Below are positions 40,395-59,570 of a stretch of DNA of 64,000 bases, piece after piece. Made by a program: the position numbers and the translations under genes. The notes under the pieces were generated by a model. The model did no database searches, had not been told where the DNA came from, and was given only the letters and a program-made list of their open reading frames with translations. Source of the DNA: a virus (Duplodnaviria > Caudoviricetes); the IMG/VR virus record IMGVR_UViG_3300011442_000009, positions 11,331 to 75,330 of that record. One strand, written 5' to 3'. The stretch's first letter is position 1. Each line of letters starts with the position of its first letter.

Positions 40395-40435
40395 TAGAAC
40401 AGTCGGAGGTTACCGTATCTCGCGCCAGTTAAAAG
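40395..40435 (-). repeat. 41-bp direct repeat, copy A (contains late promoter TGGCGC-N16-CGACTGT)
   Basis: 37 of 41 positions identical to 42034-42074. Confidence 0.85.
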
Positions 40436-42011
40436 TAGCCATCGCCGCGGTCGTCCCGCCGATCCCAGTAACCAACAAGGAAAGAGTGCCTAGAGAACGC
40501 GCCACCCCGGCGGCGTCCAGTGTAATCGGATATCTATTGTTCAGCGACACGGAGGGAGCGCTTCGACTGCCTCCATTGGCCGCGACATACCCACTTTGGA
40601 GAACAATAGATGGGGAACCGCTGATCGTCCCGGCAGTGTTAAACTCCGTCGTCGAGTAGCCCGTATTCACGTTAGTGAATGCGGTAGTGCCGCTTATCGC
40701 CTGCCCCAGCACAAGTTCCCACTGAATTGGTCGGTCTCCGGTGCCGGTAATCTCTATCGATTCCAGTACGAACTTAGACCGAGTTGTTATAGAATTGAAA
40801 GTCGCTCTCGGGCGGACCGAGAGGAGATGCACGCGCGTACCGTTTCCTGCTGTGGCAGCACCGGAGATCGAAAAGGAGAGCCCGGGTATGTCTTCTTGCC
40901 CTCCGTTTGAAGAGACGCTGGCGCATACAAAACGCATCGTGGTCGAGACCGTTCCGGTGCAAGTCATCCCGGCTCTGATCGGCAGGTTCGCGCTCTGGAT
41001 GTATGGGAAGGCCACTGTATTCGCATGGCGAAACTCGTGCACCGGAACTATGCGGCCGTCGATGTCAAAACCGACGCGAACCCGGCCGGTATACAGCGCT
41101 TGAATATCGATGACAAAAATCTGAGCCTTTGTGAGATCGAGAGTCTCGCCGCTAATCCCAGTTCCGTCAAGTTTGTCGATGTTCCAATTGGCTTTCGTGA
41201 CTATCTGGTTGCCGTTTCCGGTGCCGGACAGCAGGGCCAACTGAACCGTAGTGCCGTCCTGCTGGAGCTCTACCCCGTTCACCCCGTCGGAGTATCCTAT
41301 AAACTTCAAGGTGTTCACCACGGCCTCTATAAAATTGAACGTAACAAAAACCTCGAGAGACCTGCCCGGCTGATACCGGAAGCACTCGAAGCTTTGAAGA
41401 AAAGATTTACCTCCGGTCGGCGTGCTCGCAAAGGTCATGAGCGCGCTTCGGTTCGTGGAATCGTGGGCCACGGTCGCGCCGGTCCCGAGAACTATTGTCT
41501 CATACACGAGAGGCGGGATCTCGTAAGTGAGTTGAGAATCGAAAACATACGTTGGAGTCGCTACTCTGAGCCGAGAGAACGCGTCGAGCGTGTCCGGAAT
41601 GGTAACCGTGACCGGGTCGGTTATGTGGCTAATCGGCACCTCTGCGGCAATCGATACTGGGACCGTTCCGGCTATCGATACCGGGGCCGCTACCGACACC
41701 GGGACCGTTCCGGCTATTGATACCGGGGTCGCGATGCTGCTAACCGCGACCGGATTCGTGATGCTACTCACTGCGACTGTTCCGCCCACCGTAGCCAAAA
41801 TCGGTTGCGGAAACGATACCGGCAGCGGAGCATCGGCCGTTACGTGCCACAGAGCCCCGGATGGATCCGGGAAAACTCCCAGAGGCTGGGTGATGTTTAC
41901 GTTATCGAAGTGGATTGCGTCAATTGGTATGCCCTCGTTTAAACGCGTTAGAACTTTTCGAAGCAGGTTGTTGTCTGAATCTGCCTGTTTGTACGTAGTG
42001 TCTGTTGCCAT
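40410..42011 (-). CDS. Ser/Thr/Val-rich virion structural protein (533 aa)
   Basis: GGAGG leader; N-terminus shares TTYxQADxDxxxxRKxL with the 106-aa repeat protein; internal PVS(I/V)AG repeats. Confidence 0.75.
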   Translation of the reverse strand: MATDTTYKQADSDNNLLRKVLTRLNEGIPIDAIHFDNVNITQPLGVFPDPSGALWHVTADAPLPVSFPQPILATVGGTVAVSSITNPVAVSSIATPVSIAGTVPVSVAAPVSIAGTVPVSIAAEVPISHITDPVTVTIPDTLDAFSRLRVATPTYVFDSQLTYEIPPLVYETIVLGTGATVAHDSTNRSALMTFASTPTGGKSFLQSFECFRYQPGRSLEVFVTFNFIEAVVNTLKFIGYSDGVNGVELQQDGTTVQLALLSGTGNGNQIVTKANWNIDKLDGTGISGETLDLTKAQIFVIDIQALYTGRVRVGFDIDGRIVPVHEFRHANTVAFPYIQSANLPIRAGMTCTGTVSTTMRFVCASVSSNGGQEDIPGLSFSISGAATAGNGTRVHLLSVRPRATFNSITTRSKFVLESIEITGTGDRPIQWELVLGQAISGTTAFTNVNTGYSTTEFNTAGTISGSPSIVLQSGYVAANGGSRSAPSVSLNNRYPITLDAAGVARSLGTLSLLVTGIGGTTAAMATFNWREIR

Positions 42012-45802: not shown

Positions 45803-47119
45803 TTACAGCGTCGGATAACCGGGTCCGATCACAGGAGTCTCGTCGTCACCGCAAACACCAATGTTGGTGAAGCTGTCCGCACCACTGTAGGAGCTGGAGT
45901 TGGACGACGCGCAGGCGATCAAGCCGAGATCAGCTTGGCAGCGCTTGTAGAGGATCGGGATGATCCATTGAGGGCGCAGCGGGCGATAGGCCCGGGTGAT
46001 CTGGTACTGGTGCCAGCCGAAGTCGCCGCGGCTATTGCACTCGTTGTCGATGACATAGTGCCATTCGAGCTCACCCATGTGCAACTGCGGGGAGAACTTG
46101 AAGCTGCCTTCGCCGACATACTTCTCGGGCACGAGGCGCTCGAAGCTTCCGTCGGCAATCAGCACGCCGACTTCGTAGTCAGCGGCCAGCCAAGCGGGAT
46201 TCGGTTTCGCAAAGGCCACGCCCCGGGAAGGGTTCGCGACGATCACGACTGGGTCAACCAGTGCGAGGGTGCCGTCTTCGTTGAAGCCAGTGGCCCGGAG
46301 GGGACGCTGATCAACACCGAAGGCAATACCACGGTAAGCCGGGCTCTGCTCGAAGGAGTAGGCCGTCAAGGTCTGCTCGCCGAGTTTGTACCCGCCAGTG
46401 GTCAAGGCAACCATGACGTTCTGCACGCCGACTTCCGAGCGAAAATACTCGATCTGGTCGGTGCCGCCGATGAAGCGGAAGTGAGGCATTCCCTCGCTCT
46501 GGCTGTACCACTCGCCGAAGAGCACCTCTTTGAGGTACCGGGCAATGTAGTGCAGCGCCTTGAAGGTCATCGGACCCGTAGGCAACAGCGGGGCGAACTT
46601 CACGCCGAGATCTGTTTCCAGACCGCCGGTGAAAAGCGAATTGAAATCGTAGTTCGCGTTGGCCGTGAACTTCGAAGCGGATCGCAGGTACAGCTGGGCG
46701 CGGATGTCCGCGTTGATGTACTGGGTGACCAGTTTCTTCATGGAGTCTTCCGCCGTGCCGTACGAGCTCTTAAACGCGGCGTACCCCTGCTTGACGCAGA
46801 TGTTCGGGCCGCGGCCACGGAAGCTCTCGAGGCGGAGCGTGAATTCGACAGTGTCAGTCAGATCCTGATTACCAGTCTGGCCGCAAATGTCGGTATCGCA
46901 CACGAAGTTGGGGATCGCCAGTGAATCACCGGGAGCCGCCTGCATCTGGACGATGCTTCGAATGGCGTCAGACGTGCCGGACGGGAAGGTCCCGCCGCCG
47001 ATGACGTTCATGTATACGCTGTTTGCAGCGACCGCCTTGGCCACTTGACCAACAATTCTGTTGGTGTCCTTACTGGCTATGTCGCTGATATCAGAGGGGT
47101 TATCGCAAAAAAATGCCAT
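45803..47119 (-). CDS. Major capsid protein (438 aa)
   Basis: Size, position after portal and scaffold, own promoter and terminator, strongly biased GC3 codon usage; fold not verified. Confidence 0.7.
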   Translation of the reverse strand: MAFFCDNPSDISDIASKDTNRIVGQVAKAVAANSVYMNVIGGGTFPSGTSDAIRSIVQMQAAPGDSLAIPNFVCDTDICGQTGNQDLTDTVEFTLRLESFRGRGPNICVKQGYAAFKSSYGTAEDSMKKLVTQYINADIRAQLYLRSASKFTANANYDFNSLFTGGLETDLGVKFAPLLPTGPMTFKALHYIARYLKEVLFGEWYSQSEGMPHFRFIGGTDQIEYFRSEVGVQNVMVALTTGGYKLGEQTLTAYSFEQSPAYRGIAFGVDQRPLRATGFNEDGTLALVDPVVIVANPSRGVAFAKPNPAWLAADYEVGVLIADGSFERLVPEKYVGEGSFKFSPQLHMGELEWHYVIDNECNSRGDFGWHQYQITRAYRPLRPQWIIPILYKRCQADLGLIACASSNSSSYSGADSFTNIGVCGDDETPVIGPGYPTL

Positions 47120-47323: not shown

Positions 47324-47827
47324 TTAGTGGGTTTGGAGATAGATAGCTGCTTTCTGAAGAATTTCGGGCTGATCTTTCGCGTATCCCAAAAGCGTATTGC
47401 AGTCTTTGCACAAGAGTCCGCGCACGCGGTCGGTGCTGTGGCAATGATCGACGTGGAGTCTGCGGCCTTTTGAATCTGCGTTCTCTGCGCCGCAAATCGC
47501 GCATCCGCTGTTCTGGTTTTTCAAAAGAACTTCATACTCCTCGAGTGTGATCCCGTACGCGCGGCGCAAAACTGCTGACTTGTGTTTCCGGGGGTGCGCT
47601 TTGTTCCACGCTCTGCGCGTCGCGGCATGCTGCTCCGGGTGCTTCTTCGCCCATTCGCGGGCTTGTCTCGCGTCTTCTCCCGGGTGGGCGAGTCTCCATA
47701 CGTCTTTCGCCGCGCATTCACATACACGACAGCTATGACGAAACCCGGGCGCGTGTCCGTGCGGCCGAAAGTTTTGAGCGTTCAGTTCTTTTTCGGTCCC
47801 GCACTTTTTGCAAACCCGAATACTCAT
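47324..47827 (-). CDS. Endonuclease VII-like homing endonuclease
   Basis: YGITLEEY...QxxxCAIC...VDHCH...VRGLLCxxCNxxLG. Confidence 0.9.
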   Translation of the reverse strand: MSIRVCKKCGTEKELNAQNFRPHGHAPGFRHSCRVCECAAKDVWRLAHPGEDARQAREWAKKHPEQHAATRRAWNKAHPRKHKSAVLRRAYGITLEEYEVLLKNQNSGCAICGAENADSKGRRLHVDHCHSTDRVRGLLCKDCNTLLGYAKDQPEILQKAAIYLQTH

Positions 47828-48552
47828 CGAGGATGCGTCTGGTTATATCGGAGCCGGGCGTTCGCCATCTGAAGAACTACCCCGCGATCCTTGATCGCAT
47901 GAAGCATGATCCCACCGGCGTTCGTAATCCGATCCAGCATGTGCGCTACCCCGGGCGCGTCGTTACGCGTAGGGCAGCTAACTCCTCCCGGAAAAGTTTT
48001 GTGGGGTTCCTTGGCTTCCGCGGTGAGGCGCATTAAATAGTGGTCAATAAATTGTAGTTTCATATCCTCGAACGGGAGCCGGGCGCAGGCGTCGAAGTGG
48101 GCCTGAAGGCTCCGGCGCGAACAGAAGTACGGAGGTTGCGCCGCGTATCGGGGGAAAGAATACCCCTCGGGCATCGTGTGCATGTGATCAGAAGCTTCGT
48201 TCGACCAAAACACATCTTCGTCATAGAGGTACCTCGGCAACTGCGGCGAAAGGCAGACCGAGTCCGAGTCGTTCATGAGAATGTGTTTAAACGAGAATTC
48301 GAGCATCACCCTCATGTGCTGTTTCTGCCGTTCAAGTGACGCAGGGCCAATATACGCCCGCTCTCCCGCAGTCCGGAAAATTAACTGCTTGCTGGTTGAT
48401 CCGAGAGCTTGGGGAGTTATAGGTGCATCGTTGGGGGAGAGTATCAGCACCGGGCACTGATGGTGCAGATAGTACGGCAACAAGTTTTTGATTTGGTGAG
48501 CGTCTCCGGCGTATCCGCAGACGGCAACGAGCGTGTCAGGATTCAGGGGCAT
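47824..48552 (-). CDS. Putative GT-A glycosyltransferase (242 aa)
   Basis: ILMNDSD (DxD) and C-terminal MLHAIKD; paralogous pattern with 50407..51144; adjacent to gmd. Confidence 0.55.
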
Positions 48553-49502
48553 AGCTGTAGTTCTTTCAAGACCATTTCACGGACAAGATCTCCGAAGCAG
48601 ACGGTCGGCTGCCATTTCAAAACCCGCTTAGCTTTCGATGGGTCTCCCAAGAGGACGTCCACTTCGGCCGGGCGAAAATACTTTGGATCCGTGGTGACAT
48701 ATTCCTGCCAATCGAGATCGACGTAATCGAAAGCGATCTCGCAAAATTCGCGCACGGAATATGTCTCCCCCGTGGCAATGACGTAGTCATCCGGTTTGTC
48801 CTGCTGGAGCATCAGCCACATCGCGTGCACGAAATCTTTAGCGTGCCCCCAATCGCGCTTGGCGTCGAGGTTTCCTAGCACGAGGTTCTTTTGTCGGCCC
48901 CGCTTTATGCGCGCCACGGCCTTCGCGATTTTGCGAGTGACAAACGTCTCGCCACGGCGCGGGGATTCATGGTTAAAAAGTATTCCGTTGCTGGTGTGGA
49001 GACCGTAAGATTCCCGATAATTCTTGGTAATCCAGTAAGAGTAAACTTTGGCGCACCCGTAAGGACTGCGCGGATAAAAGGGAGTGTTTTCATGTTGGGG
49101 AGGGGGACTCGCCCCGAACATCTCGGAGCTGCTGGCTTGGTAAAATCGGGGATAGCAACCGCCAAGGCTGCGAATCGCCTCGAGGATACGGATCGTTCCC
49201 AGACCCGTCGCGTCACCGGTATACTCCGGCACATCGAAGCTCACCTTCACGTGGCTCTGCGCCGCGAGATTATATATCTCGTGCGGAGTCGTGTCGTGAA
49301 TCACGCGAGTCATGGCGGACCCGTCGGAGAGATCTCCATAGTGGATGTTTAAACGATCAAATATATGATCGATCCTGCCGGTGCTGAAACTGCTCGACCG
49401 GCGCATGATTCCATGCACCTCGTAGCCGTAGCTGAGCAATTCCTCAGCGAGGTAGCTTCCGTCTTGGCCGGTTATCCCGGTTATTAGTGCTCGTTTCGGC
49501 AT
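48543..49502 (-). CDS. gmd: GDP-mannose 4,6-dehydratase
   Basis: [61 protein letters not shown]. Confidence 0.97.
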
Positions 49503-50410
49503 AAGAAGTCTTGATAGGCTAGTTTGATTCCGTCTTTGATGTTAGTTCTGGGTTTCCATCCCAGTTCGAAAATCTTGTGGCTGTTAAGTAACCGGCGGGG
49601 AGTGCCGTCCGGTTTGCTTTTATCCCAGTGAATGTTCCCGGTAAATCCGGTGGCTTCCGCTACTAGACCGGCCAGCGTGCCGAGCATCAGCTCTTCGCCA
49701 CTCCCGATATTTGTAAGATCGTCCGCCTTGCCCGCCACGAGAAGTTTTATCGCAGCCTCCGCGAGATCGTCCGCGAACAAAAATTCTCGGGTCGGCGTGC
49801 CGCTTCCCCACAGAATCACGTCGTTTGCCTTGGCTTTCACGGCCTCGTGGAACTTCCGGACCATGCCCGGCAAAACATGCGAGTGCTCCGGGTGATAGTT
49901 GTCCCCAATCCCGTAGAGATTCGTAGGCATGCACGAAATGAAATGGCGTTTGTGCTGCTCCCTAATTGCTTGGCACATTTCGATGCCCGCGATCTTCGCC
50001 ACTGCGTAGGCCCGGTTCGTTTCCTCGAGCGGGCCGCACATAAGCTGATTCTCCTGAATGGGGACCTGCGCGTGCTTCGGGTAGGCACAGGCGCTACCGA
50101 AAAACAGAAACCTAGAGACCCCGCAACCTAGAGCTGCCTCCATGGTGTTGGTCTGTATTCTAAGATTGTCCCGAATAAAATCCGCTCCCAGCCTGCTGTG
50201 CGCCATGATGCCCCCGACCTTGGCCGCGGCGTGGAAAACCACGTCCGGTTGGTAAGCTAGAAAATATTCCCAAGTACGGTCCCAGTCGGTCAGATTGAGG
50301 ACTCTCGAAGAGGGCGACAGAATTTCATCAGCGCCGTATCCCAAAACTTTGAGTTGTCGAATCAACGCTTGGCCAACGAGGCCGTGCCCGCCAGTGACTA
50401 GAATTCTCAT
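49484..50410 (-). CDS. fcl: GDP-L-fucose synthase (epimerase/reductase)
   Basis: TGGx[54 protein letters not shown]. Confidence 0.96.
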
Positions 50411-51144
50411 ATCTTTTCACCTAGAAGGTGACGCCGACCCAGCTCGATTAGCGAAAGGTCCTTGACCCCGTGGATCCAGATTAACTGACCGCGTTGGGCC
50501 TCGTGGAACTTCTCCAGCGTGTAGCCTCTAGTTGCATACCACGATACAATACCGGGGATGTTTGCCCAACCTCTTTTTTTAAACTGGGGAGAGAGCGCGT
50601 AGTCCCAGCCCACATTAGCTTTCAGGCCGTCCGCGGTCCTGAGCACCCACTTCAGCATGGTTGCTTCTCCGTTGACGAGAAGGTTGCCGTTCATGTGCTC
50701 CGCCGGGATGTACACTACCGGGCCAGCGACGCAGACCGGTTTCGGTTTGTTCGCGTAATCCCACGCCTGAGACATACGAAGGATCCAGTCAGGGAAAACC
50801 GGACACCCGTCAGACTCGCAGGTGAAAATTGCCTTGTACCGCGGGATCCTGCGTGCGGCACTCATCGACTCCGCCCACCGAATTGTATTTATCCAAAGAG
50901 AATTGCAACCGGCGGGCCAGCCGGTGTTCCCCCGGGGCGCAGAGTACTGCCACAAGTTAAACTTGCGAGAGATCTGCAGGGCAATGGGGCCGGGCAACGA
51001 AAGGCAATCGTGCCGGTTTACCAACAGCACGTCCGCCAGATCCGAATGCCTCGGCTCGAGATCAGCGAGGTACCTTATGAGAGCCTCGGCCTGAGCCTTA
51101 TCGCCTTCCCAGTACTGAAGTGCGATCAGTATTTTATTGCTCAT
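50407..51144 (-). CDS. Putative GT-A glycosyltransferase (245 aa)
   Basis: IFTCESDG (ExD) and C-terminal IHGVKD; ATGA coupling; paralog pattern with 47824..48552. Confidence 0.55.
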   Translation of the reverse strand: MSNKILIALQYWEGDKAQAEALIRYLADLEPRHSDLADVLLVNRHDCLSLPGPIALQISRKFNLWQYSAPRGNTGWPAGCNSLWINTIRWAESMSAARRIPRYKAIFTCESDGCPVFPDWILRMSQAWDYANKPKPVCVAGPVVYIPAEHMNGNLLVNGEATMLKWVLRTADGLKANVGWDYALSPQFKKRGWANIPGIVSWYATRGYTLEKFHEAQRGQLIWIHGVKDLSLIELGRRHLLGEKI

Positions 51145-52067
51145 CGGCTGAGAACCCCTTGTGGCTTGGGTGTTGTATTCTTCGGGCCGTAAACGCAGTG
51201 GCCAATGTGTCCGCATATTAATCCTAAATCGACGTAAGGCGTGTGCCCGGCCGCTTTGGCCCGAAGACAAAAGCTTACGTCTTCACCGACACCAAGAGTG
51301 TTTTCTGCCTGAGCGAGTGCAATAGCCGATTCCAGACCGCGGAGCGCGTCGTACCCTTTCGCGGCCGTGATGGGTCCGTCGGCCAGCGCGTTCCGTACCC
51401 TCGCAACTTGATCAAGAAGGCTCGCCTCAGTCGAAGTGAACCAGTTTCCTCCAGCCTTGTTCGGGCCTTGTCGGGCGATACGCGGGAACACTTTTTCGAT
51501 GTCCTCGAAAACTGTGCGGTGAGTAAGAAGGCAGCCAGTTCCAACCCATCGAGTTTCCTGAATTTTGTCATAGGGACCTTTGCGGTAGTATTCAGCGACC
51601 TGCGGATTCGCGCTTCCCTCGTTGGTGACCGGGGGTCCGTACCGGTGACGCCCAAAATACAGTCCGCCGACGAGAGACTTTCCGTGGCTCATGAGCCGGT
51701 CGAGAGTGTTTAAACCCATAAACTGCTCCGGAAAATCGAAGTTCGTATGAGATCGATACCAGTCGGCATTCCCGAAGGGAAGCAGCATGTCGTCGTCGAC
51801 CCAAAGAGCATAATCGCACGGGGACTTTAAAAAGATTTCGGCGCAAGTGTTCCGCGTGTGTGAAATAAAGGCGTCGCCCCACGATAACAAACAGGATGTT
51901 CGCCGACGGTCTATCAATTGAGCGACACAGAAGGCCGTCATTGGCGACACGTTCTTGTGCCACGGCATGATAATCATAACCTTCTTCGAGACCATGGCAA
52001 CCGCCGCAGATTTATCCGCCAGGAGCCCGGGTCCTCCTCCTGTTTTATCTGAAAATCCTAACTCCAT
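51141..52067 (-). CDS. GT2-like glycosyltransferase (308 aa)
   Basis: RNxCA...DYALWVDDDM, VGTGCLL, GEDVSFCLRA...G, VDLGLICGHIG. Confidence 0.8.
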   Translation of the reverse strand: MELGFSDKTGGGPGLLADKSAAVAMVSKKVMIIMPWHKNVSPMTAFCVAQLIDRRRTSCLLSWGDAFISHTRNTCAEIFLKSPCDYALWVDDDMLLPFGNADWYRSHTNFDFPEQFMGLNTLDRLMSHGKSLVGGLYFGRHRYGPPVTNEGSANPQVAEYYRKGPYDKIQETRWVGTGCLLTHRTVFEDIEKVFPRIARQGPNKAGGNWFTSTEASLLDQVARVRNALADGPITAAKGYDALRGLESAIALAQAENTLGVGEDVSFCLRAKAAGHTPYVDLGLICGHIGHCVYGPKNTTPKPQGVLSR

Positions 52068-52609
52068 GCTTTTCCTTTTCGTAAATTCTCTTGTTTAAAC
52101 AACGGCTGCGTATTTGACCAATTGAAACACTGTCTCTGTTGGCCGGGATCTCTAAGATCGAAACTGGCGCAAGGGCGTTTGTGATCCACATGCCAAACTC
52201 GACCGTAGTTTTCCCAGCTCATCCCCGGTTTGAACTGCCCGGCTAGGTACTCTCGGTACTCTTCGATACCGCAGCCCAGCAGCTCTATAGAGCTGCCGTG
52301 TTTTACGCTATCTCGAAGCGCCGCCCGGACACGGCTCCTGAGAGTCCACATAAGTCGAAACCCACTGTCGGTTTTTAGCCGATTTTTAATATACCGTCGG
52401 TTTGAGGCTCGGTACTTGATCGCGTTCCGGTGATACCGGGCTAGGGACATCTTACGACTCCGGGCCACGTCAGAATAGTAGCTCTTTTCTTTGTGCCGCC
52501 TAGTTCTTTCCGGATTCTCTCGTCTCCGGTCGCGTTGCAGTTTCCACCTACGCCGCACCGCCAATAAGAGCGCGGCGCGGTGGAAATCGAATGTCAATTC
52601 TTGGCCCAC
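52058..52609 (-). CDS. HNH-like endonuclease
   Basis: LLGC...YLAGQFKPGMSWENYG.VWHVDH..PCASFD...CFNWSNTQPL...NLRK. Confidence 0.85.
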   Translation of the reverse strand: MGQELTFDFHRAALLLAVRRRWKLQRDRRRENPERTRRHKEKSYYSDVARSRKMSLARYHRNAIKYRASNRRYIKNRLKTDSGFRLMWTLRSRVRAALRDSVKHGSSIELLGCGIEEYREYLAGQFKPGMSWENYGRVWHVDHKRPCASFDLRDPGQQRQCFNWSNTQPLFKQENLRKGKAWS

Positions 52610-52651
52610 GCTAGAACCTTATCAGATCTTATGTGTTTTCCCAACTACTTT

Positions 52652-54004
52652 TTAAGTGGCGGCTCCGGTGCGGGCGCGCTCCTCCATGATTTGCTTCGCG
52701 ATGGAGTCCAGAGCGTCCTGTGACCGTACGTTGAGATCCTGCTTCGGCTTTTGCGGAGCCGGAGCGCCGGGTGCGGCAGAAGATTCAGGCAAACGGCTAC
52801 GGCCGGAGGCTTTGACCTTTTCCCACTTCGCGGCGACTTCGTCGTACGCCTTGGACTTGGCCTCGTGAGCCGCTTTCAACTTCTCATGCTCCCGCTGGAG
52901 GTTGAAAAGCTGGAGCACGCCGGTGATCAGCGTCGCGCGCATCCGCGGTGAGTCGTCCTGCAGCGCCGCTTGCATCTGGGCGCGTGTCTCAACCACGAAC
53001 TGGTTGTGCTCCTCGATCTCTTTCTTCGCGGCTTCGTCCGCCTTCGCGTCTGCGGTCTTCTCAGCGAACCAAGGCAGCGCCGTGGCGAACTGTGCGAGCT
53101 CCGCGGCAGTGGCCTTCTGGTGCCCGCCAATAGCCTCGGTCACGGCCTTCTCACGGTTCGCCAAATATTCGCCGACGTTTTTCTTCGCCTCGGTGATCGC
53201 CAGATCTTTCTCGTAGCGAACCTTGGCAACGTCCGCGATCTGAGACTCCACAATTCGCTGGAGAGTCGGATCTTTCATGGCCTCGAAGAGCGCCGAAAGA
53301 TTGCACTTGTCGGGACCACCGTACTCTTTGATCTGCTTGATCGTGTCCTCGGTGACAGCCGGGTTTTTCCGGAGCTGCGAGTAAATGAATTCGTGGGCCT
53401 TGCTGACCTTCGTGTCGAATTCCTTAAACTTCGGATCGAAGTCGATGTCCATCTTTGCGCGCCACGCACGAAGGTCTTCCAGTTCCTTCTCCTTTGCGAG
53501 TTGCTCCTCGGTGGGCTTGCCTGCCCGGCCGTTGAGCTCTTCAACCTGCTTCTTCGCGGCGTCCCGCTCCTGCTGCAGCCGGGTGATTTCCTGAGCGGCC
53601 TTGATCTTCACGGCCGAAAAAGCCTCTGAAGATTTCGGACTCGCGTTAGGCGGGAGCGTCGGAGTCTCTTTGAAAAACTCGTCCGCTTTTTTCAACTCCT
53701 CGGCCTTGGCGACGCGTTCGGCTTCCGCTTTGTCGGCGGCTTCCTTCGCGGCCTTGTCGGCGTCCGGCGCTGGTGTGCTATCGTCCTCTTTGGGCTCGAT
53801 CACAACCGGTGGCGCTTCCGCGGCGGCTTTGGCTTTTTCTTCGTTCTCCTTGGACTTCGCAGCGGCGAGTGCGTCAAGGGACTCAATCGCGAGAGGGTCC
53901 GCCACGGGGGCGAGACTCTGCTCACGAAGCAGCCCAGCGGCCGCTTTGTCATTATTGGTTTTGGTGTCGAATTGCGCTAGCGCTTCTTCTTGGGTCTTAG
54001 GCAT
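52652..54004 (-). CDS. Putative capsid scaffolding protein (450 aa)
   Basis: Charged, Ala-rich coiled coil between the portal and capsid genes. Confidence 0.55.
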   Translation of the reverse strand: MPKTQEEALAQFDTKTNNDKAAAGLLREQSLAPVADPLAIESLDALAAAKSKENEEKAKAAAEAPPVVIEPKEDDSTPAPDADKAAKEAADKAEAERVAKAEELKKADEFFKETPTLPPNASPKSSEAFSAVKIKAAQEITRLQQERDAAKKQVEELNGRAGKPTEEQLAKEKELEDLRAWRAKMDIDFDPKFKEFDTKVSKAHEFIYSQLRKNPAVTEDTIKQIKEYGGPDKCNLSALFEAMKDPTLQRIVESQIADVAKVRYEKDLAITEAKKNVGEYLANREKAVTEAIGGHQKATAAELAQFATALPWFAEKTADAKADEAAKKEIEEHNQFVVETRAQMQAALQDDSPRMRATLITGVLQLFNLQREHEKLKAAHEAKSKAYDEVAAKWEKVKASGRSRLPESSAAPGAPAPQKPKQDLNVRSQDALDSIAKQIMEERARTGAAT

Positions 54005-54007
54005 AGG

Positions 54008-54352
54008 TTATAACTGTTCAGGTGTTCTCGGGGCGGGGTCTTCTACGGGCGTGAGTTTCTGACCGTCATTCCACTTGGAATCGTCCTCAAGAGGAGGATA
54101 CGACGACGCCACTTCCGTGACGTTTCCGGGCGTGGAATGGGACATTGCCAGAAGCTGCGAAACGGCGAGTTGCAATCCTCTGTGTTCGCCGGAGCGAATC
54201 AGAATCGCGTTGGTGTCGCCAGAAGCTAGGAGGCCGGGAACCGACTCCAGAAGCTTCGGAATTAACCGCCGCCCTGTGTCTGTCTCGAGGAATTTCCCCC
54301 ATCGCTCTTCGTCAATTGGGGACCAGTCTAATGGTCCGGCTATAATTTCCAT
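54008..54352 (-). CDS. Hypothetical head-module protein (114 aa)
   Basis: Packed ORF after the portal gene. Confidence 0.6.
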   Translation of the reverse strand: MEIIAGPLDWSPIDEERWGKFLETDTGRRLIPKLLESVPGLLASGDTNAILIRSGEHRGLQLAVSQLLAMSHSTPGNVTEVASSYPPLEDDSKWNDGQKLTPVEDPAPRTPEQL

Positions 54353-54371
54353 GGTTCATCGGGTTAGGGAT

Positions 54372-56504
54372 TTACTGCATTGGGACTTGCTGCGGCTGGG
54401 GTTCGGGCGGAAGCCCGGGGTCGCCTTGCTCAAGAGCGGCCGTCTCTGCTTGATGCGCCATCGCCTGTTGATCGATCTGCTTCAACTGCGCAATCGCGGT
54501 CGCGGCGTTGGCCAAAAATTCTTTTATGGGCGCGAGGGTCTGCGAATCCATGCCCTGCTGCATCGCAATCGTATAGTGCTCGTTGATGTGCGCCACCATT
54601 GCCTCGAAAACGCTCGTGTCCGACTGGCCTTGGTGCAATTGCCCGGCGGCCTGCTCGGTGACCGGCATCAGCACCTGCATGTGAATAAGATGATTGTCCC
54701 GGGGGCTCACTTCCACCGGCTGACCGGCGCTGAGCAGCACAACCTCGAGGTTCTGCATGCGGGATTGTTCCGCGATTTCGGTCGGGTCCTGATCCGCGAG
54801 CAAAACGCGTTTGGCGAAATCCGAGCCCATGCGCGCAGAAAGATCTTCGACTTCGAGCTGTCGCTGGTTGTACAGCGGGTTGCCCTTCTTCTCCTGCGCT
54901 AACATCACGATTGACTGACGTTGTAGCGGGGTAAGGTCCGATATCGAGGACGCTACTGGCTGCTTCGCCAGCTCGTCAAGCTCTTCGCGAGACATCGACT
55001 CCAGCATCGTCTCTTGAAAATCCCGGGCGTCCTGATCGTCCACGTCGGGGTCGCAGATACGACGCTGCATCAAACCGAAAAGATCCGTCATCTGCTCGAG
55101 GAACCTAGAGATCCGAATATCCTTCGCCTCGTTTTCCCGGGAGGCGAGCAAATTCCAAGCAGCCGGAGAGCGCATGCCCTCGCCTGCAGTCGCCATGTTG
55201 GGCGTCGATGTAGAGCCAATGAGCTCATTGACTAGCTGCTTGAAGAATACGTCGAGCTTCAAAAATCCGTCCACGTTGCCGTCGATCTTTTGCTCGAGAA
55301 CTGTCCAACCAGAGGGCACGATGATCGTGCTGCCAATGACGGACATTTTGAAAGTGTGAAGGCGTCGGACATCGCCCTGCATGAGAGTTTTGCCGGACAT
55401 GATCAGCCGGTCAACAACTTCATTGCGCGTGCGATCCAGCATCCCGGCCAGCTCGTAGATGTCCCGGCCGATTCCTTTAGAACCGTGCAGAGTGCCATTG
55501 CCTTTTTGGAAAGTGAAAAACGAGCAGCAGTCTTCGAAGCTTTCGAAATGATCCACGCGGGAAAATATCTCTAGGAGCTCCGGCCCGGCGACGCGATAGT
55601 GAGAAACCTTCCCAGTAACCTCGCGTACGAGCAGATTGTAAATCACAATCACGCTTGCGCCTGCCATATAGCTCGCGCCAATGGTCAACTCGCGAAGCGC
55701 GTTCTGATACCAGATCTCCAGAGTGCCGCCGACGTTGAGCCGGTCGCGGATCTGCATCGGGGAAGCCCGATTTATCGCTTGGGCGGTGTTCTCGAGTTTC
55801 CAACCGGCATCCTCGGCAGCTTCGCGGTCTTGGATGTGCGCGAACAGCTCGTGCGGCAACAACGTCTCTTTGAGCACGAGGATTTGCGCCCATCGTGTGT
55901 CTGACTTGGTGCCGTCGGCTGCGAACGAGTCCTCAAACGAGAAAGCAGTAGGAAACCAAGAATAGTTATCGAGGAGGCCAACGACAGTATGCCCAAAAAG
56001 AGCATTATTGAAAGCGATGTCATTTATTAAAGTGTTAAACCCTTTGCGATTCCGGATCAGGTCTGTAATGCCCTTCCGAAAGGTTTCGGTTTTCTCAGTT
56101 GAGTTGAGCCACTTGTCGGAGAGCTGAGAATTCGTAAAATATTTCAGCCCGTCGATCGCCTGCACGAATCTGGGAGCAACTTGCTCGATCATCGACGGCA
56201 AAGGCTTGCTTGTGAAGTTCTGACGCCAGCCCAAACCCTCCGACTCGAGTTTCCGGGAGTCATACGGGCGCTCCGCGTTGACCTTTGCGAGGATTCGAGA
56301 GAAAATGATAGACCGATTGCGGCCCGCCTGAATGACGGTGCGGATTACGTCGCGGCCCATCGCGATATCGCGAATACTTCGCTGCGTGGGCTCGCCTTTC
56401 TTGTCAATGTCGGGAGACTGGATGATCCCGCCGAGTGCGTTCGTGGGATAGCCTCCGTTTGTGACGGAAAAGGGCAAAGGACTTGGGCTTGCTGTATCTG
56501 CCAT
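54372..56504 (-). CDS. Portal protein (710 aa)
   Basis: Size, position after terminase, helical content and Q-rich C-terminal tail typical of P22/T7-like portals. Confidence 0.75.
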   Translation of the reverse strand: MADTASPSPLPFSVTNGGYPTNALGGIIQSPDIDKKGEPTQRSIRDIAMGRDVIRTVIQAGRNRSIIFSRILAKVNAERPYDSRKLESEGLGWRQNFTSKPLPSMIEQVAPRFVQAIDGLKYFTNSQLSDKWLNSTEKTETFRKGITDLIRNRKGFNTLINDIAFNNALFGHTVVGLLDNYSWFPTAFSFEDSFAADGTKSDTRWAQILVLKETLLPHELFAHIQDREAAEDAGWKLENTAQAINRASPMQIRDRLNVGGTLEIWYQNALRELTIGASYMAGASVIVIYNLLVREVTGKVSHYRVAGPELLEIFSRVDHFESFEDCCSFFTFQKGNGTLHGSKGIGRDIYELAGMLDRTRNEVVDRLIMSGKTLMQGDVRRLHTFKMSVIGSTIIVPSGWTVLEQKIDGNVDGFLKLDVFFKQLVNELIGSTSTPNMATAGEGMRSPAAWNLLASRENEAKDIRISRFLEQMTDLFGLMQRRICDPDVDDQDARDFQETMLESMSREELDELAKQPVASSISDLTPLQRQSIVMLAQEKKGNPLYNQRQLEVEDLSARMGSDFAKRVLLADQDPTEIAEQSRMQNLEVVLLSAGQPVEVSPRDNHLIHMQVLMPVTEQAAGQLHQGQSDTSVFEAMVAHINEHYTIAMQQGMDSQTLAPIKEFLANAATAIAQLKQIDQQAMAHQAETAALEQGDPGLPPEPQPQQVPMQ

Positions 56505-56508
56505 GCGA

Positions 56509-56772
56509 TTAACAGTCGAAGGTATCTGTTTGGCGCGCTACTTTTTCTCTAAGCCAGTACTTTCGAGGGCACTGCTCGGTACAAAGTGAGGTTTTTGAAA
56601 TGATCAGGCACTTGCAGACCCCGCAGACGTCCTCTTCCCGGTCCGGGCACACGTTGCAGACCTGTGCACGGGTCCAAATTGTCTTCCGGGAGGCCAAAAT
56701 CTCGTATCCGCGGAATTTCCACCAGCACGAGCGAACGAATGCCATCAAAAAGTGCCAAAAAAGCATGATCAT
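56509..56772 (-). CDS. Small Cys-rich protein (RxxxCxxCP...CxxCxC...CP..W), 87 aa
   Basis: ATGA coupling; six Cys in a conserved-looking pattern. Confidence 0.7.
   Translation of the reverse strand: MIMLFWHFLMAFVRSCWWKFRGYEILASRKTIWTRAQVCNVCPDREEDVCGVCKCLIISKTSLCTEQCPRKYWLREKVARQTDTFDC
56512..56540 (-). promoter_or_regulatory. Putative late promoter TAGCGC-N16-CGACTGT
   Basis: 7 nt upstream of the portal ATG. Confidence 0.65.
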
Positions 56773-57341
56773 ATCTGGGTTTTCCTCCAACAGTGGGCCG
56801 GTAGGTCGTTATTCGCTACCCGGGTCGAGTCCAAGTGCACCGCAGTGGGCAAATCCTCTCCCAAAAAGCCGCAGGCATGGAGCCGGGCGTCGAGCAGGCG
56901 CTTCCCTATGGTTGCCTTCCTGAGCTCGTTGAGCGCTTTGACGCAACTCTGGCAGCCCCCGGGCAATTCGTTGTTCCCCGGGCACGTGGCGCACACGTTT
57001 GCTCGGTTCCGGCGCTCATCGTCAGGCACGAAAACCAGTGGATGCACCTGTACGTGCTCCCTGAGAGCTGTGATCCACTTCAGGACCCGTGTTTTCAGAG
57101 TCGTCTTGGCGAGGGTCTCGGCGTACACAGCATTTTCAGTCCGGCAAAGCCCCGGGTTAACCCGGCACGCTTGCGCGATTACCTCCGCGGCGACGTCCCC
57201 GACGGGCACCCCGGCCCGTTCCCGGAACCTCTGAACCTTCGCGATGACCCCGGGCCACGAGTTGCTCGTGTGCGTCACATTGTTTTCATCTTTGAAGGAA
57301 AAGCCACCTTTGGGAAACACGTTATTATTGATCGTTTGCAT
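56769..57341 (-). CDS. Cys-rich protein (190 aa) with RxxxCxxCP...CxxC...C...CW domain
   Basis: Starts 1 nt after the terminase stop; Cys pattern resembles that of the adjacent gene. Confidence 0.7.
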   Translation of the reverse strand: MQTINNNVFPKGGFSFKDENNVTHTSNSWPGVIAKVQRFRERAGVPVGDVAAEVIAQACRVNPGLCRTENAVYAETLAKTTLKTRVLKWITALREHVQVHPLVFVPDDERRNRANVCATCPGNNELPGGCQSCVKALNELRKATIGKRLLDARLHACGFLGEDLPTAVHLDSTRVANNDLPAHCWRKTQI

Positions 57342-57342
57342 A

Positions 57343-59283
57343 TCACCAACTAAATCCATCCGGCATCGGTTCGAAATTAGAGTCTAAAACTTCGGTCTGA
57401 TTCGTGGCGTCGATTCTCGCGCCGCCTTTGTACATTGAGTCCATCCAAGAGTCGTCGATATTGCTGATCGTGTGCGAGTTATTTTCTCGCATGGAGAGCT
57501 GCACCTGAGACCCCCTGCGCGCCGCCAGCACCAAAAGCGACAACGAGTCGGCATCGTTGGGCGATGAAAAACCTCGGGACTCAAAATCTTTTTTGCTCTC
57601 GGTCTTTGACCGGCCGGAGATCACGCGATAGCGCCGGTTCGCGAGCTGCCCGGCGAGCTTGGTCATGTCGACCGACGGGTGAATCAGGAGGTACCCGAAT
57701 TCAAACCACATTCGCATCCCGAACCAAAGCTCGGTCGCTATGCGGTCGTACATTTCCTTGCAGATCTTGCTATCCTCGATCATCAGCTTCTCAAGGCTGG
57801 CGCTCTCGGAATAGTTTACGTCGTGTATCACGGAGGACCACTCGTAGCGGATCAGATCCGCGACACCCGCGCCGTGGCCGGTACGATCACATGCGTAGTA
57901 CTCCGGGCGTGTCCCGCTCTTGCGGTTCATTTCCATCACGGACTTTTTCATTGCCACTGTCTCGCCCTTGGGCAAAACAAACTGCTGAGTCACCTGAAGA
58001 CCCCAGCGCGGCATCACAGAACCGTCAGGTCGTTTAAACAGCGTCGTATGACCGTTGGGGTAGTCGACGGATGAAGGCCATTTAATTCCAGTTGCCATCC
58101 CCCATTTACCGATTGTATGAACTGCTTCGTCACCACCTTCCAAGGCCAGATCAGTGGCTCCGACTGTGACGGGTTCTTCGAACCAGATATACTCGCCACG
58201 AACTTTTCCCAGCATCCCAGCAGGAATGACCGTCGCTTCGATTCCAATTGCAGGATATAAACCTCGACCCATCGTCCGGTATCCGCCGGAGTTTCTTCCA
58301 CCAGCATTTGCGGCAATCTTTTCCAATCCACCGGCCGTCTGGAGCCCGGGATATATAACTTTTTTCTGCAGGACGTTCTCACACCTTTCACCGTCCAAGC
58401 GCAGCACGTTCCAGCCACGCGTGGATTTCCATTTAAAATGGACGTCTTCGTCAAGATTAGACCATCCAAAAGGGGGCTCTGCACGCTTGCTAACTTCGTC
58501 ATATGGATCAGAGGGGTTGTACGCGCCGAAGATCTTGAAACCTCTTCCGCCTTCTTCGGTGTTGGAAATGATGTTGTCGATGTCCGCCCAGATTCCCTTG
58601 GCGATATTCTCGACTTCGTCCATGAAAATAAACATGCGGGAAAGATCGCCGAGTACTGGGTGCGGTACCGGACGGGGTCGGCGTTTAGAACCTTGGAGAC
58701 GGCCCGCCTTCTTATTTGCGCCCTTCGGCACAATGACACCGCGAATTGATGAAAGTTGATCACGACGTGTTAATCCTATGAATAGCCCGCCGATCTCCCC
58801 GGCAAGCGGCACCGACGCGTTTTGATGGAGCGAAACCATGTGGGAGAACAGGTTTGCTTCCAAGTGATTCTCGGACGGACCGAGCAACCGGATCGTAGTA
58901 TACTCTGGATCCCGCGCCCACTCCATTAAAAGTCTGACGCCCATCGAAAAAGATTTTCCCATGGACGCCGCACCGCAAATGAGCCCCATGTCCGTGGTGT
59001 CGAAAAGCTCCCAGATATCCTTTACGCTCTGGGGCTCCGGGGAGAACTGTGCCGGGGTCCAAAGGATCTGTGCCGCTTCTGCTAGTGCGCCCTCCTCCAT
59101 GATCCCACGCACGTACGGCGCGAGCACCTCATTGATCTCTCCTTCTGTGGGTGTCTTCCGCTTTACCTTGAACTGCGCCTTGTAAAACCCACAGACCAGT
59201 TCGCACGCCGATATCTTCTGGTCGGAATGCACCAGCTTCGCGACCTGCGCCGCGAGCTGTTTTTCTGCTACTGGTAAACTCAT
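57343..59283 (-). CDS. terL: Terminase large subunit
   Basis: Walker A GAASMGKS, Walker B FIFMDE, coupling motif GAYNP, nuclease acidic residues ATDLA, CDRTG, SPNDADS. Confidence 0.9.
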   Translation of the reverse strand: MSLPVAEKQLAAQVAKLVHSDQKISACELVCGFYKAQFKVKRKTPTEGEINEVLAPYVRGIMEEGALAEAAQILWTPAQFSPEPQSVKDIWELFDTTDMGLICGAASMGKSFSMGVRLLMEWARDPEYTTIRLLGPSENHLEANLFSHMVSLHQNASVPLAGEIGGLFIGLTRRDQLSSIRGVIVPKGANKKAGRLQGSKRRPRPVPHPVLGDLSRMFIFMDEVENIAKGIWADIDNIISNTEEGGRGFKIFGAYNPSDPYDEVSKRAEPPFGWSNLDEDVHFKWKSTRGWNVLRLDGERCENVLQKKVIYPGLQTAGGLEKIAANAGGRNSGGYRTMGRGLYPAIGIEATVIPAGMLGKVRGEYIWFEEPVTVGATDLALEGGDEAVHTIGKWGMATGIKWPSSVDYPNGHTTLFKRPDGSVMPRWGLQVTQQFVLPKGETVAMKKSVMEMNRKSGTRPEYYACDRTGHGAGVADLIRYEWSSVIHDVNYSESASLEKLMIEDSKICKEMYDRIATELWFGMRMWFEFGYLLIHPSVDMTKLAGQLANRRYRVISGRSKTESKKDFESRGFSSPNDADSLSLLVLAARRGSQVQLSMRENNSHTISNIDDSWMDSMYKGGARIDATNQTEVLDSNFEPMPDGFSW

Positions 59284-59570
59284 ACTTCCCGGCCGCAGTT
59301 TAAGACGGTCTCCTCGGTAGTCCCGAGCGGGAACTTCACGAGCTCCGCCGTCTTCCAACCTCGTGCGCCGTAGCGTTTGGGTCGGGGCGTTGGAATCGAG
59401 ACCCCCTTATGGCTCTTGGGAGCCCGAAGGGAAAAATTGATTATCCGCATGGAGGTGGCCAGCCGGTCGAATCCGATCCGGGTCTTCCAGCCGCGATTTT
59501 TCCATGATCTCAGCCAGATCCGCGCCATCGGCAGCTCCTTCTCACAATACTTTCCAGTTATCAAAGGCAC
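59280..59570 (-). CDS. Basic hypothetical protein upstream of terminase (96 aa)
   Basis: GTG 5 nt after CGACTGT; ATGA coupling to terL. Confidence 0.55.
   Translation of the reverse strand: MPLITGKYCEKELPMARIWLRSWKNRGWKTRIGFDRLATSMRIINFSLRAPKSHKGVSIPTPRPKRYGARGWKTAELVKFPLGTTEETVLNCGREV

Follow-up and report, generated by a model that had tools for sequence, protein, structure and literature searches.

What do the genes for making and transferring a sugar do in the midst of the head genes of a tailed phage? This question is raised by positions 47824-52067 of a 64,000-nucleotide stretch of phage DNA (IMG/VR record IMGVR_UViG_3300011442_000009, positions 11,331 to 75,330), hereafter the window, which belongs to the complete 75,330-bp record of an uncultured soil phage; the searches for base-modification genes described below covered the whole genome. 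The locus, hereafter the cassette, holds gmd and fcl, the genes for the synthesis of GDP-L-fucose, and three genes for predicted glycosyltransferases (GTs), here called X308, X245 and X242 (Table 1). It lies between the genes of a 450-aa scaffold-like protein and a 438-aa presumed capsid protein. Here we report a computational analysis in which the cassette is read as a late-expressed, modular protein-glycosylation system aimed at virion proteins, to which we assign a probability of roughly one half. Virion glycosylation by phage-encoded enzymes has so far been documented mainly in a few actinobacteriophages.

The sugar donor is a well-supported part of this reading. Gmd scored 506.3 bits against TIGR01472, above the curated cut-off of 415, with residues 3-317 aligned to model positions 1-341/342, and matched PF16363 at 3.8e-138. 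Fcl scored 365.5 bits (2.4e-109) against the equivalog NF047922, which is under the strict cut-off of 500 bits, yet this was by far its best family. The 18 best PDB matches of Fcl were all GDP-L-fucose synthases (4e-85 to 2e-37), and the alignments to the top ones (4e-85 to 2e-77) were full length. The motifs GSACAYP, YAVAK and HSHVLP of Fcl aligned with GSSCIYP, YAIAK and SSHVLP of 8du0, which places both the Ser-Tyr-Lys triad and the Cys and His of epimerisation in the window protein; the catalytic set of the E. coli enzyme is S107, Y136, K140, C109 and H179. The function of Fcl as a GDP-L-fucose synthase is likely from these matches. The conversion of GDP-mannose to GDP-L-fucose, which the original prediction had ascribed to the pair, is well supported by the sequence comparisons, with a small residual possibility that another 6-deoxyhexose is the product.

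The three transferases are less easily placed. X308, X245 and X242 had no match in Pfam or NCBIfam, even at E<=10, and none by tblastn among 50,697 GenBank phage records at E<=0.01 or E<=0.001. For X308, a phmmer search of the PDB gave no match, and the only match among the PHROGs was a weak one to phrog_34859 ('glycosyltransferase', E 0.0026). Between 80 and more than 600 metagenomic homologs were found per transferase (612 for X308), all devoid of Pfam domains and mostly located on contigs of 70-75 kb.

The fold of X308 and X245 was assessed with AlphaFold2 models. The model of X308, built from an alignment of 66 sequences (pLDDT 88), gave VIA Z values of 15.5 with residues 293-519 of LH3, 15.0 with A197 of Sulfolobus turreted icosahedral virus, 14.6 with mimivirus R699, 14.0 with COLGALT1 and 13.5 with Mnn9, and its structural alignments to solved GT-A enzymes comprised 169-186 residues. 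D91-D92-D93, a DXD-type motif, and E262-D263 are invariant across the 66 homologs. The model of X245 (pLDDT 97) gave VIA Z values of 16.4 with CHSY3, 16.2 with B3GalT5/6, 15.0 with Manic Fringe and 13.7 with the capsid GT A64R of Paramecium bursaria chlorella virus 1 (PBCV-1); over enzymes of families GT31, GT14, GT8 and GT13, Z ranged from 16.4 to 13.3, with about 208 of the 245 residues aligned. Foldseek likewise matched X245 to CHSY3 (6e-8), and X245 resembled many viral GT-A proteins as well. In its motif TCE[AS]DG, E110 (conserved in at least 90% of homologs) and the invariant D112 flank a position that accepts any residue, an ExD variant that presumably takes the part of the DXD motif. 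On models that cover nearly the whole chain, X308 and X245 can with confidence be predicted to be GT-A glycosyltransferases.

The third protein, X242, is a candidate. Its ESM Atlas model (pTM 0.77) gave TM values of 0.70-0.74 to clusters of GT14 Branch, GT31 Galactosyl_T and Fringe proteins, and in its NDSDS motif D97 and S98 are invariant and D95 is conserved in at least 90% of homologs. X242 is GT-A-like by this model and a candidate transferase for the 6-deoxyhexose. Of the earlier claim of three glycosyltransferases, the part concerning X308 and X245 stands (Z 15-16), and that concerning X242 stands as far as the ESM Atlas model carries it. Two finer assignments were not borne out. X308 had been called GT2-like, but it matched neither PF00535 nor any other Pfam family at the threshold given above. 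The two smaller transferases had been called paralogs, but a kinship of X242 with X245 or X308 found no support (BLASTP E 0.34; hhalign probabilities of 0.7% and 1.5%); short aligned pieces, such as strand beta1 (ILIALQYW.GD against a ten-letter piece) and NDSDS against DDDM, are suggestive at most. If the models are right, the cassette would provide three new GT-A families for which neither Pfam nor NCBIfam holds a model.

The cassette genes are translationally arranged as a unit. The five genes are on the minus strand and, as had been noted earlier, coupled: in the series HNH183/X308/X245/fcl/gmd/X242/EndoVII, which includes the endonuclease gene on either side, each stop overlaps the next start by 10, 4, 4, 19, 10 and 4 nt, respectively. 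The start of X245 is assigned to the ATG at 51144 because this forms an ATGA overlap with the stop of X308 and because all homologs begin there; the 287-aa reading from a TTG in the list of open reading frames (ORFs) is an over-extension. The maximum Kyte-Doolittle hydropathy of any 19-mer was <=1.25 in all five proteins, none of which has a membrane-like segment; they are therefore predicted to be soluble and cytoplasmic. In the region 47324-59358, Shine-Dalgarno-like sequences are missing from the 25 nt before almost all late gene starts, the majority of which are coupled to the stop of the gene before.

The expression of the cassette can be judged from a bipartite motif. A scan of the window with the expression T-N-[GT]-C-[GA]-[CA]-N16-CGACT[GC]T returned eight minus-strand copies (starts at 56540, 47316, 42308, 42066, 40427, 33435, 29465 and 21438), each just before the start of a late gene, and one plus-strand copy, where about 0.1 were expected. 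The motif is likely a late promoter. One copy precedes the gene of a 710-aa portal-like protein and the next (47316-47288) precedes the 438-aa gene, with none between 56512 and 47316; because of this spacing, the cassette is assigned to one putative late unit together with the 710-aa, 114-aa and 450-aa genes. The late control proposed by the original prediction is plausible on these grounds.

The identity of the flanking genes is a matter of their order, composition and conservation. The 450-aa protein consists of 18% Ala, 12% Lys and 12% Glu, is poorly conserved across relatives (24-59% identity, only four invariant columns) and is always encoded between the 710-aa/114-aa genes and X308; it matched no family in Pfam, PHROG or the PDB. 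No protein of the region is better conserved than the 438-aa protein (58-91% identity across the clade), which belongs to a superfamily with 217 representatives in an exhaustive library search, all of them unnamed; it had no match in Pfam (E<=5), PHROG (40 clade and 47 superfamily members), the PDB (two profiles) or by tblastn against phages. We infer that the 450-aa protein is the scaffold and the 438-aa protein the capsid protein. The location of the cassette between scaffold and capsid genes, as claimed earlier, holds as a location between these two genes, whose functions are presumed.

The C-terminus of the 438-aa protein (45803-45940) carries a Ser-rich loop that is conserved and bounded by Cys (...C..SSS[FY][ST]G[AS]DSF..GVC), after which comes a tail that varies. 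Depending on the lineage, the tail reads ...PVIGPG[YV]PTL or ...PV[IV]H, is a Cys-rich extension or is missing, and its type tends to track the type of cassette, a tendency from which shared ancestry was not separated out. Genes downstream encode collagen-like proteins, with G-X-Y runs of 6-11 triplets, as well as Ser/Thr-rich proteins. Another late protein (533 aa, 40410-42011) shares 32-38% identity over about 390 residues with 'virion structural proteins' of T4-like cyanophages (S-RIM8, S-RIM12, S-RIM50); few other links tie this phage to cultured ones. The 533-aa protein was considered as the real capsid protein and rejected, as its cyanophage homologs are distinct from gp23.

The relatives of the locus show which of its genes belong to the head module. 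In total, 85 related loci were compared after typing their ORFs against the window proteins, and 63 of them, with 48 architectures and 47 distinct sequences of the 438-aa protein, span the full interval. X308 and X245 were present between the homologs of the 450-aa and 438-aa genes in all of these (63/63). In about 15 architectures, including the deepest branches of the 438-aa protein tree, the pair stands alone, and even two remote members of the 438-aa superfamily (L089 and L091) have X308-like and/or X245-like genes immediately upstream. The remaining genes vary: a true fcl (40-56% identity), accompanied by gmd or not; other short-chain dehydrogenases/reductases (SDRs; 24-29% identity, just 106-135 bits against NF047922), again with or without gmd; one or two copies of X242; and genes for a PS_pyruv_trans protein, a GT2, a weakly sulfotransferase-like protein, a Mom-family protein and several unknown proteins. 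Because X308 and X245 are fixed and the other genes come and go, the island is better described as an ancestral two-GT core with swappable accessories than as the simple five-gene insertion that had been proposed. By its gene content, the window phage holds the fucose version of this island. Co-occurrence with head genes, which had been suggested as a check, holds throughout for X308 and X245 and in part of the relatives for gmd and fcl.

Several accessories of the relatives merit mention. In relatives without fucose genes, the same slot is occupied by a polysaccharide pyruvyl transferase (4.7e-10; L028:10550-11569), a Glyco_tranf_2_4 protein (1.5e-13; L072:9030-9785) or a protein with a weak Sulfotransfer_3 match below the cut-off (9e-4; L074:10489-11067). 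Among the relatives with a fucose cassette, the closest have a Mom-family gene (PF25680, 6e-34) between gmd and X242 (L001:11560-12207; L002:6772-7419). Mom of phage Mu is a DNA-modifying enzyme; the family member found here may instead be an acyltransferase that acts on glycans. The unknown accessory ORFs did not match the profiles A1-A3. SDR and X242 genes tend to occur together (both in 27 loci, neither in 15, SDR only in three, X242 only in two; both in 27 of the 32 that have either), an association that is kept as a lead because it reflects only 3-5 independent events.

From these elements the following mechanism is proposed. X308 and X245, the soluble GT-A pair of the head operon, would probably start or build a glycan from nucleotide sugars supplied by the host; Gmd and Fcl would turn host GDP-mannose into GDP-L-fucose; and X242 would be the likeliest enzyme to add the fucose. 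The most likely acceptor would be the presumed capsid protein, whose gene directly follows the cassette, and the candidate site would be the conserved Ser-rich loop and the variable tail at the C-terminus of this protein; collagen-like or Ser/Thr-rich fibres could serve as acceptors as well. The analysis shows the identities and folds of the enzymes, the structure of the operon and the synteny across the clade; from these we infer which protein is the acceptor, in what order the transferases act, what X242 does and that the 438-aa protein forms the capsid. The set of accessory sugar genes is not the same in all relatives, and the glycan would accordingly vary from one lineage to another. Glycosylation of virion proteins is favoured because of the fixed position in the head operon, the coupling to late genes, the solubility of the enzymes and the lineage-specific accessories for glycan tailoring. 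Relative to the original prediction, it has been strengthened by the two transferases, which keep their place beside the gene of the presumed capsid protein throughout the clade and in part of the remote relatives, and the acceptor has stayed at the level of a presumption. The mimicry of mucin or host glycans and the binding of fucose-foraging hosts, also suggested at the time, are unsupported.

A number of points weigh against this reading. The glycoprotein is a prediction from gene content, a GT-A fold says nothing about the acceptor, and the position of a gene is only circumstantial evidence as to the target of a glycan. The GT-A-like fold of X242 comes from one third-party model, no sequence or profile method identified the 438-aa protein as capsid or the 450-aa protein as scaffold, and an upstream GT is missing in one relative from the 438-aa superfamily (L092). 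The association of SDR and X242 genes did not reach significance in a test of independent pairs, with 3-5 independent transitions. Finally, the islands of gmd, fcl and fucosyltransferase genes in cyanomyoviruses are found apart from the structural modules, and the usual view takes them for genes of host metabolism.

Host-glycan remodelling and DNA glycosylation are both less likely than glycosylation of the virion. The former would have the soluble GTs act at the cytoplasmic face of the membrane on lipid-linked intermediates of O-antigen, extracellular polysaccharide or capsule, so that infected or lysing cells would come to display a changed, fucosylated surface; the masking of receptors could then keep progeny from being lost to debris, or the change could be a conversion function. 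Peripheral GT-A enzymes without transmembrane segments commonly build glycans linked to undecaprenyl diphosphate, the pyruvyl transferase, GT2 and sulfotransferase-like accessories of the relatives are typical of polysaccharide loci, and the gmd-fcl-fucosyltransferase islands of cyanophages are usually interpreted in this sense. A serine recombinase gene near a terminase-like gene in relatives also makes a temperate lifestyle possible. However, the cassette has no flippase, polymerase, initiating phosphoglycosyl transferase or any other membrane protein, and its genes are coupled within a late head operon and have no promoter motif of their own, a timing poorly suited to surface display and unlike that of lysogenic-conversion morons. 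Moreover, X308 and X245 form a fixed core pair of the head module in every full-interval relative, not a sporadic moron, and the single match of X308 among species genomes (see below) gives no sign of widespread prophages. We consider remodelling of the host envelope unlikely.

A target outside the virion other than the envelope is a poorer candidate still. The enzymes might modify a cytoplasmic protein of host or phage, for takeover or for the evasion of defence, or a small molecule, or might have a metabolic role, the adjacency to head genes being a historical accident. GT-A enzymes do modify many classes of acceptors, but the exact position between the scaffold-like and 438-aa genes is deeply conserved, also in remote relatives, which is not easily understood unless the enzymes have some connection with the assembly of the head, and their late expression alongside the structural genes speaks against a role in takeover. 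This explanation is quite improbable.

The idea that the GTs glycosylate a modified base of the phage DNA while or shortly before it is packaged fares worst. Searches of the complete genome for PF00145 (C5 methylase), PF00303 (thymidylate synthase-like hydroxymethylase) and PF13640 (2OG-FeII_Oxy_3) gave no match, with positive controls detected for all three, in line with the earlier remark that hydroxymethylase and other base-modification genes are missing; Tet_JBP (PF12851) gave no match either, in a search in which the control genomes were silent too. Phage clusters of methyltransferase, 5mYOX/TET and GT genes are reported to put mono- to trisaccharides on 5-hydroxymethylcytosine, some of them beside structural genes (Pyle et al., bioRxiv 10.1101/2023.12.21.572611), and resemble the present locus as clusters of phage GTs (related to enzymes of lipopolysaccharide and teichoic acid synthesis) with diverse glycans that are sometimes near structural genes, but their defining partners (C5 methyltransferase, 2-oxoglutarate oxygenase, hydroxymethylase) were not found in the window genome by the searches just described. 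The Mom-family gene in the cassette of one relative (L001/L002) keeps this explanation alive at a low level, but since it is found neither in this phage nor in most relatives, and since the pyruvyl transferase and sulfotransferase-like accessories point to glycan tailoring and not to base chemistry, we regard DNA hypermodification as very improbable.

Glycosylation of virion proteins, the reading preferred here, has partial precedents. In mycobacteriophages Che8, Corndog and Myrna, phage GTs glycosylate the phages' own capsid and tail-tube subunits, with the glycans at the C-termini of the subunits (Freeman et al. 2023 Cell Host Microbe, via PMC12363180 and PMC12619734). The presumed capsid protein of the window phage likewise has its Ser-rich region at the C-terminus. 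The mycobacteriophage GTs (Che8 gp110, Corndog gp38) showed no sequence relation to X308, X245 or X242 in the tblastn search of GenBank phages. The present system further differs from them in having a GDP-fucose pathway of its own, in belonging to an uncultured soil clade with a clade-wide two-GT core, and in being a prediction from gene content.

A second precedent is found outside the bacteriophages. PBCV-1 makes GDP-L-fucose from host GDP-mannose with its GMD (A118R) and GMER (A295L), and its cytoplasmic GT-A transferases A064R and A111/114R build a fucose-containing glycan on the major capsid protein Vp54 (PMC9614988). The window phage shares with it the pairing of virus-encoded GMD and GMER with GT-A transferases, one of which, X245, resembles the capsid GT of PBCV-1 as described above; the similarity of the cassette GTs to those of PBCV-1 is at the level of the fold only. 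PBCV-1 is, however, a giant virus of eukaryotes whose glycans are N-linked and whose genes for them are dispersed, whereas the genes reported here form a compact operon inside the head module of a tailed phage.

Adjacent gmd and fcl genes next to annotated fucosyltransferases or other GTs are also present in the cyanomyoviruses S-SCSM1 (genes 121-129), DSL-LC03, P-SSM2 and S-CAM7, whose fcl products share 42-48% protein identity with the window Fcl. These islands lie among the non-structural and auxiliary genes of T4-like phages of 170-250 kb and have GTs of named families, whereas the cassette lies between the head-assembly genes of a 75-kb phage. GtrABC systems, which are expressed from prophages, need the flippase GtrA, the bactoprenol GT GtrB and a polytopic serotype GT. 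They resemble the proposed role of the cassette in that phage-encoded GTs change a surface glycan, but differ from it in that the cassette proteins have no membrane segment and their genes are part of a late operon.

Phage-encoded gmd and fcl, the glycosylation of phage virions and the use of virus-made GDP-fucose for capsid glycans (in chloroviruses) are thus already known. What is new is the clade-wide core-plus-accessory architecture, the three predicted GT-A families and the combination of these elements inside the head operon of a tailed phage. If the phages of this clade do put sugars on their own particles, this would be an old and conserved element of head assembly in an abundant group of environmental phages and would come with a built-in hypervariable sugar module. 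It would then have a bearing on the stability of virions in soil, their adsorption to surfaces and hosts, and their recognition by lectins of hosts or predators. The cassette would also supply a compact operon for capsid glyco-engineering along with its GT-A families, and the prediction is open to test by co-expression in E. coli, without culture of the phage.

More tentatively, a broader scheme may be outlined, which we consider possible though on balance doubtful. An obligatory, capsid-linked core of two GTs would be combined with interchangeable genes for donors and tailoring (for fucose or another 6-deoxyhexose, for pyruvate and perhaps for sulfate or acyl groups). The homing endonucleases scattered over the cassette would help to shuffle these genes, and the result would be a lineage-specific virion glycan 'serotype' in a large clade of uncultured soil phages of about 70-75 kb. 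Such a system would be a phage counterpart of O-antigen diversification, and the window phage would be the first bacteriophage to make its own GDP-fucose in order to fucosylate its particle.

Table 1. Positions of the cassette genes, their neighbours and the upstream promoter-like motif in the window.
Feature	Position	Strand	Remarks
Late-promoter-like motif TAGCGC-N16-CGACTGT	56512-56540	minus	7 nt upstream of the 710-aa gene; sole copy upstream of the cassette
Scaffold-like protein	52652-54004	minus	450 aa; presumed from order, composition and poor conservation
HNH-type homing-endonuclease-like gene	52058-52609	minus	183 aa; phrog_1035 (endonuclease VII) 2.7e-5; HVDHKRP...N...N motif
X308, predicted core glycosyltransferase 1	51141-52067	minus	308 aa; GT-A model with helical insertion
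X245, predicted core glycosyltransferase 2	50407-51144	minus	245 aa; GT-A model, GT31/GT14/GT8-like
fcl, likely GDP-L-fucose synthase (GDP-4-keto-6-deoxymannose 3,5-epimerase/4-reductase)	49484-50410	minus	308 aa; NF047922, PDB
gmd, GDP-mannose 4,6-dehydratase	48543-49502	minus	319 aa; TIGR01472, PF16363
X242, candidate accessory glycosyltransferase-like protein	47824-48552	minus	242 aa; ESM Atlas model
Endonuclease VII/HNH-type homing-endonuclease-like gene	47324-47827	minus	167 aa; PF02945 2e-24, phrog_2914 3e-35
Presumed major capsid protein	45803-47119	minus	438 aa; presumed from order, conservation and its own late motif

The cassette is flanked on either side by an endonuclease gene, as had been stated earlier and as is now borne out by family and motif matches (Table 1). 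Homologs of the HNH gene are missing from most relatives or placed elsewhere, and those of the EndoVII gene vary in presence and position. Homing-endonuclease-like genes of four types (HNH, EndoVII, GIY-YIG+NUMOD3, HNH_3+AP2) occur at different cassette junctions in the relatives; besides the two in the window, such junctions were seen in L011, L015, L052 (9891-10499), L067 (8516-8974) and L085. Because types and junctions differ between relatives, both window genes are regarded as mobile passengers outside the pathway. The cassette is a hotspot of endonucleases, which could drive the swapping of sugar genes. In one relative (L048:11430-13514), the gmd homolog encodes 694 aa and its dehydratase match is split by an insert of about 350 aa with a weak LAGLIDADG_3 match, which looks like an intein or the insertion of a homing endonuclease.

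Two further observations concern the distribution and the domains of the core transferases. Among 185,579 species genomes, X308 had one match, which is too little to call a host: a homolog of 44% identity on a 26.5-kb contig (L086, JABFSS010000103.1) of a metagenome-assembled genome of Candidatus Peribacteraceae (Candidate Phyla Radiation, Peregrinibacteria), which could be a mis-binned phage contig or a hint at the host. In one of the remote superfamily members, the X245-like GT is fused to an additional C-terminal domain (L089:5463-6902) that is free-standing, with 204 aa, in the other (L091:194-808). The two versions have no Pfam match, share the motif ...ACYLRWLA...GGG.M.DYDVVN and may represent a further nucleotide-sugar transferase module.

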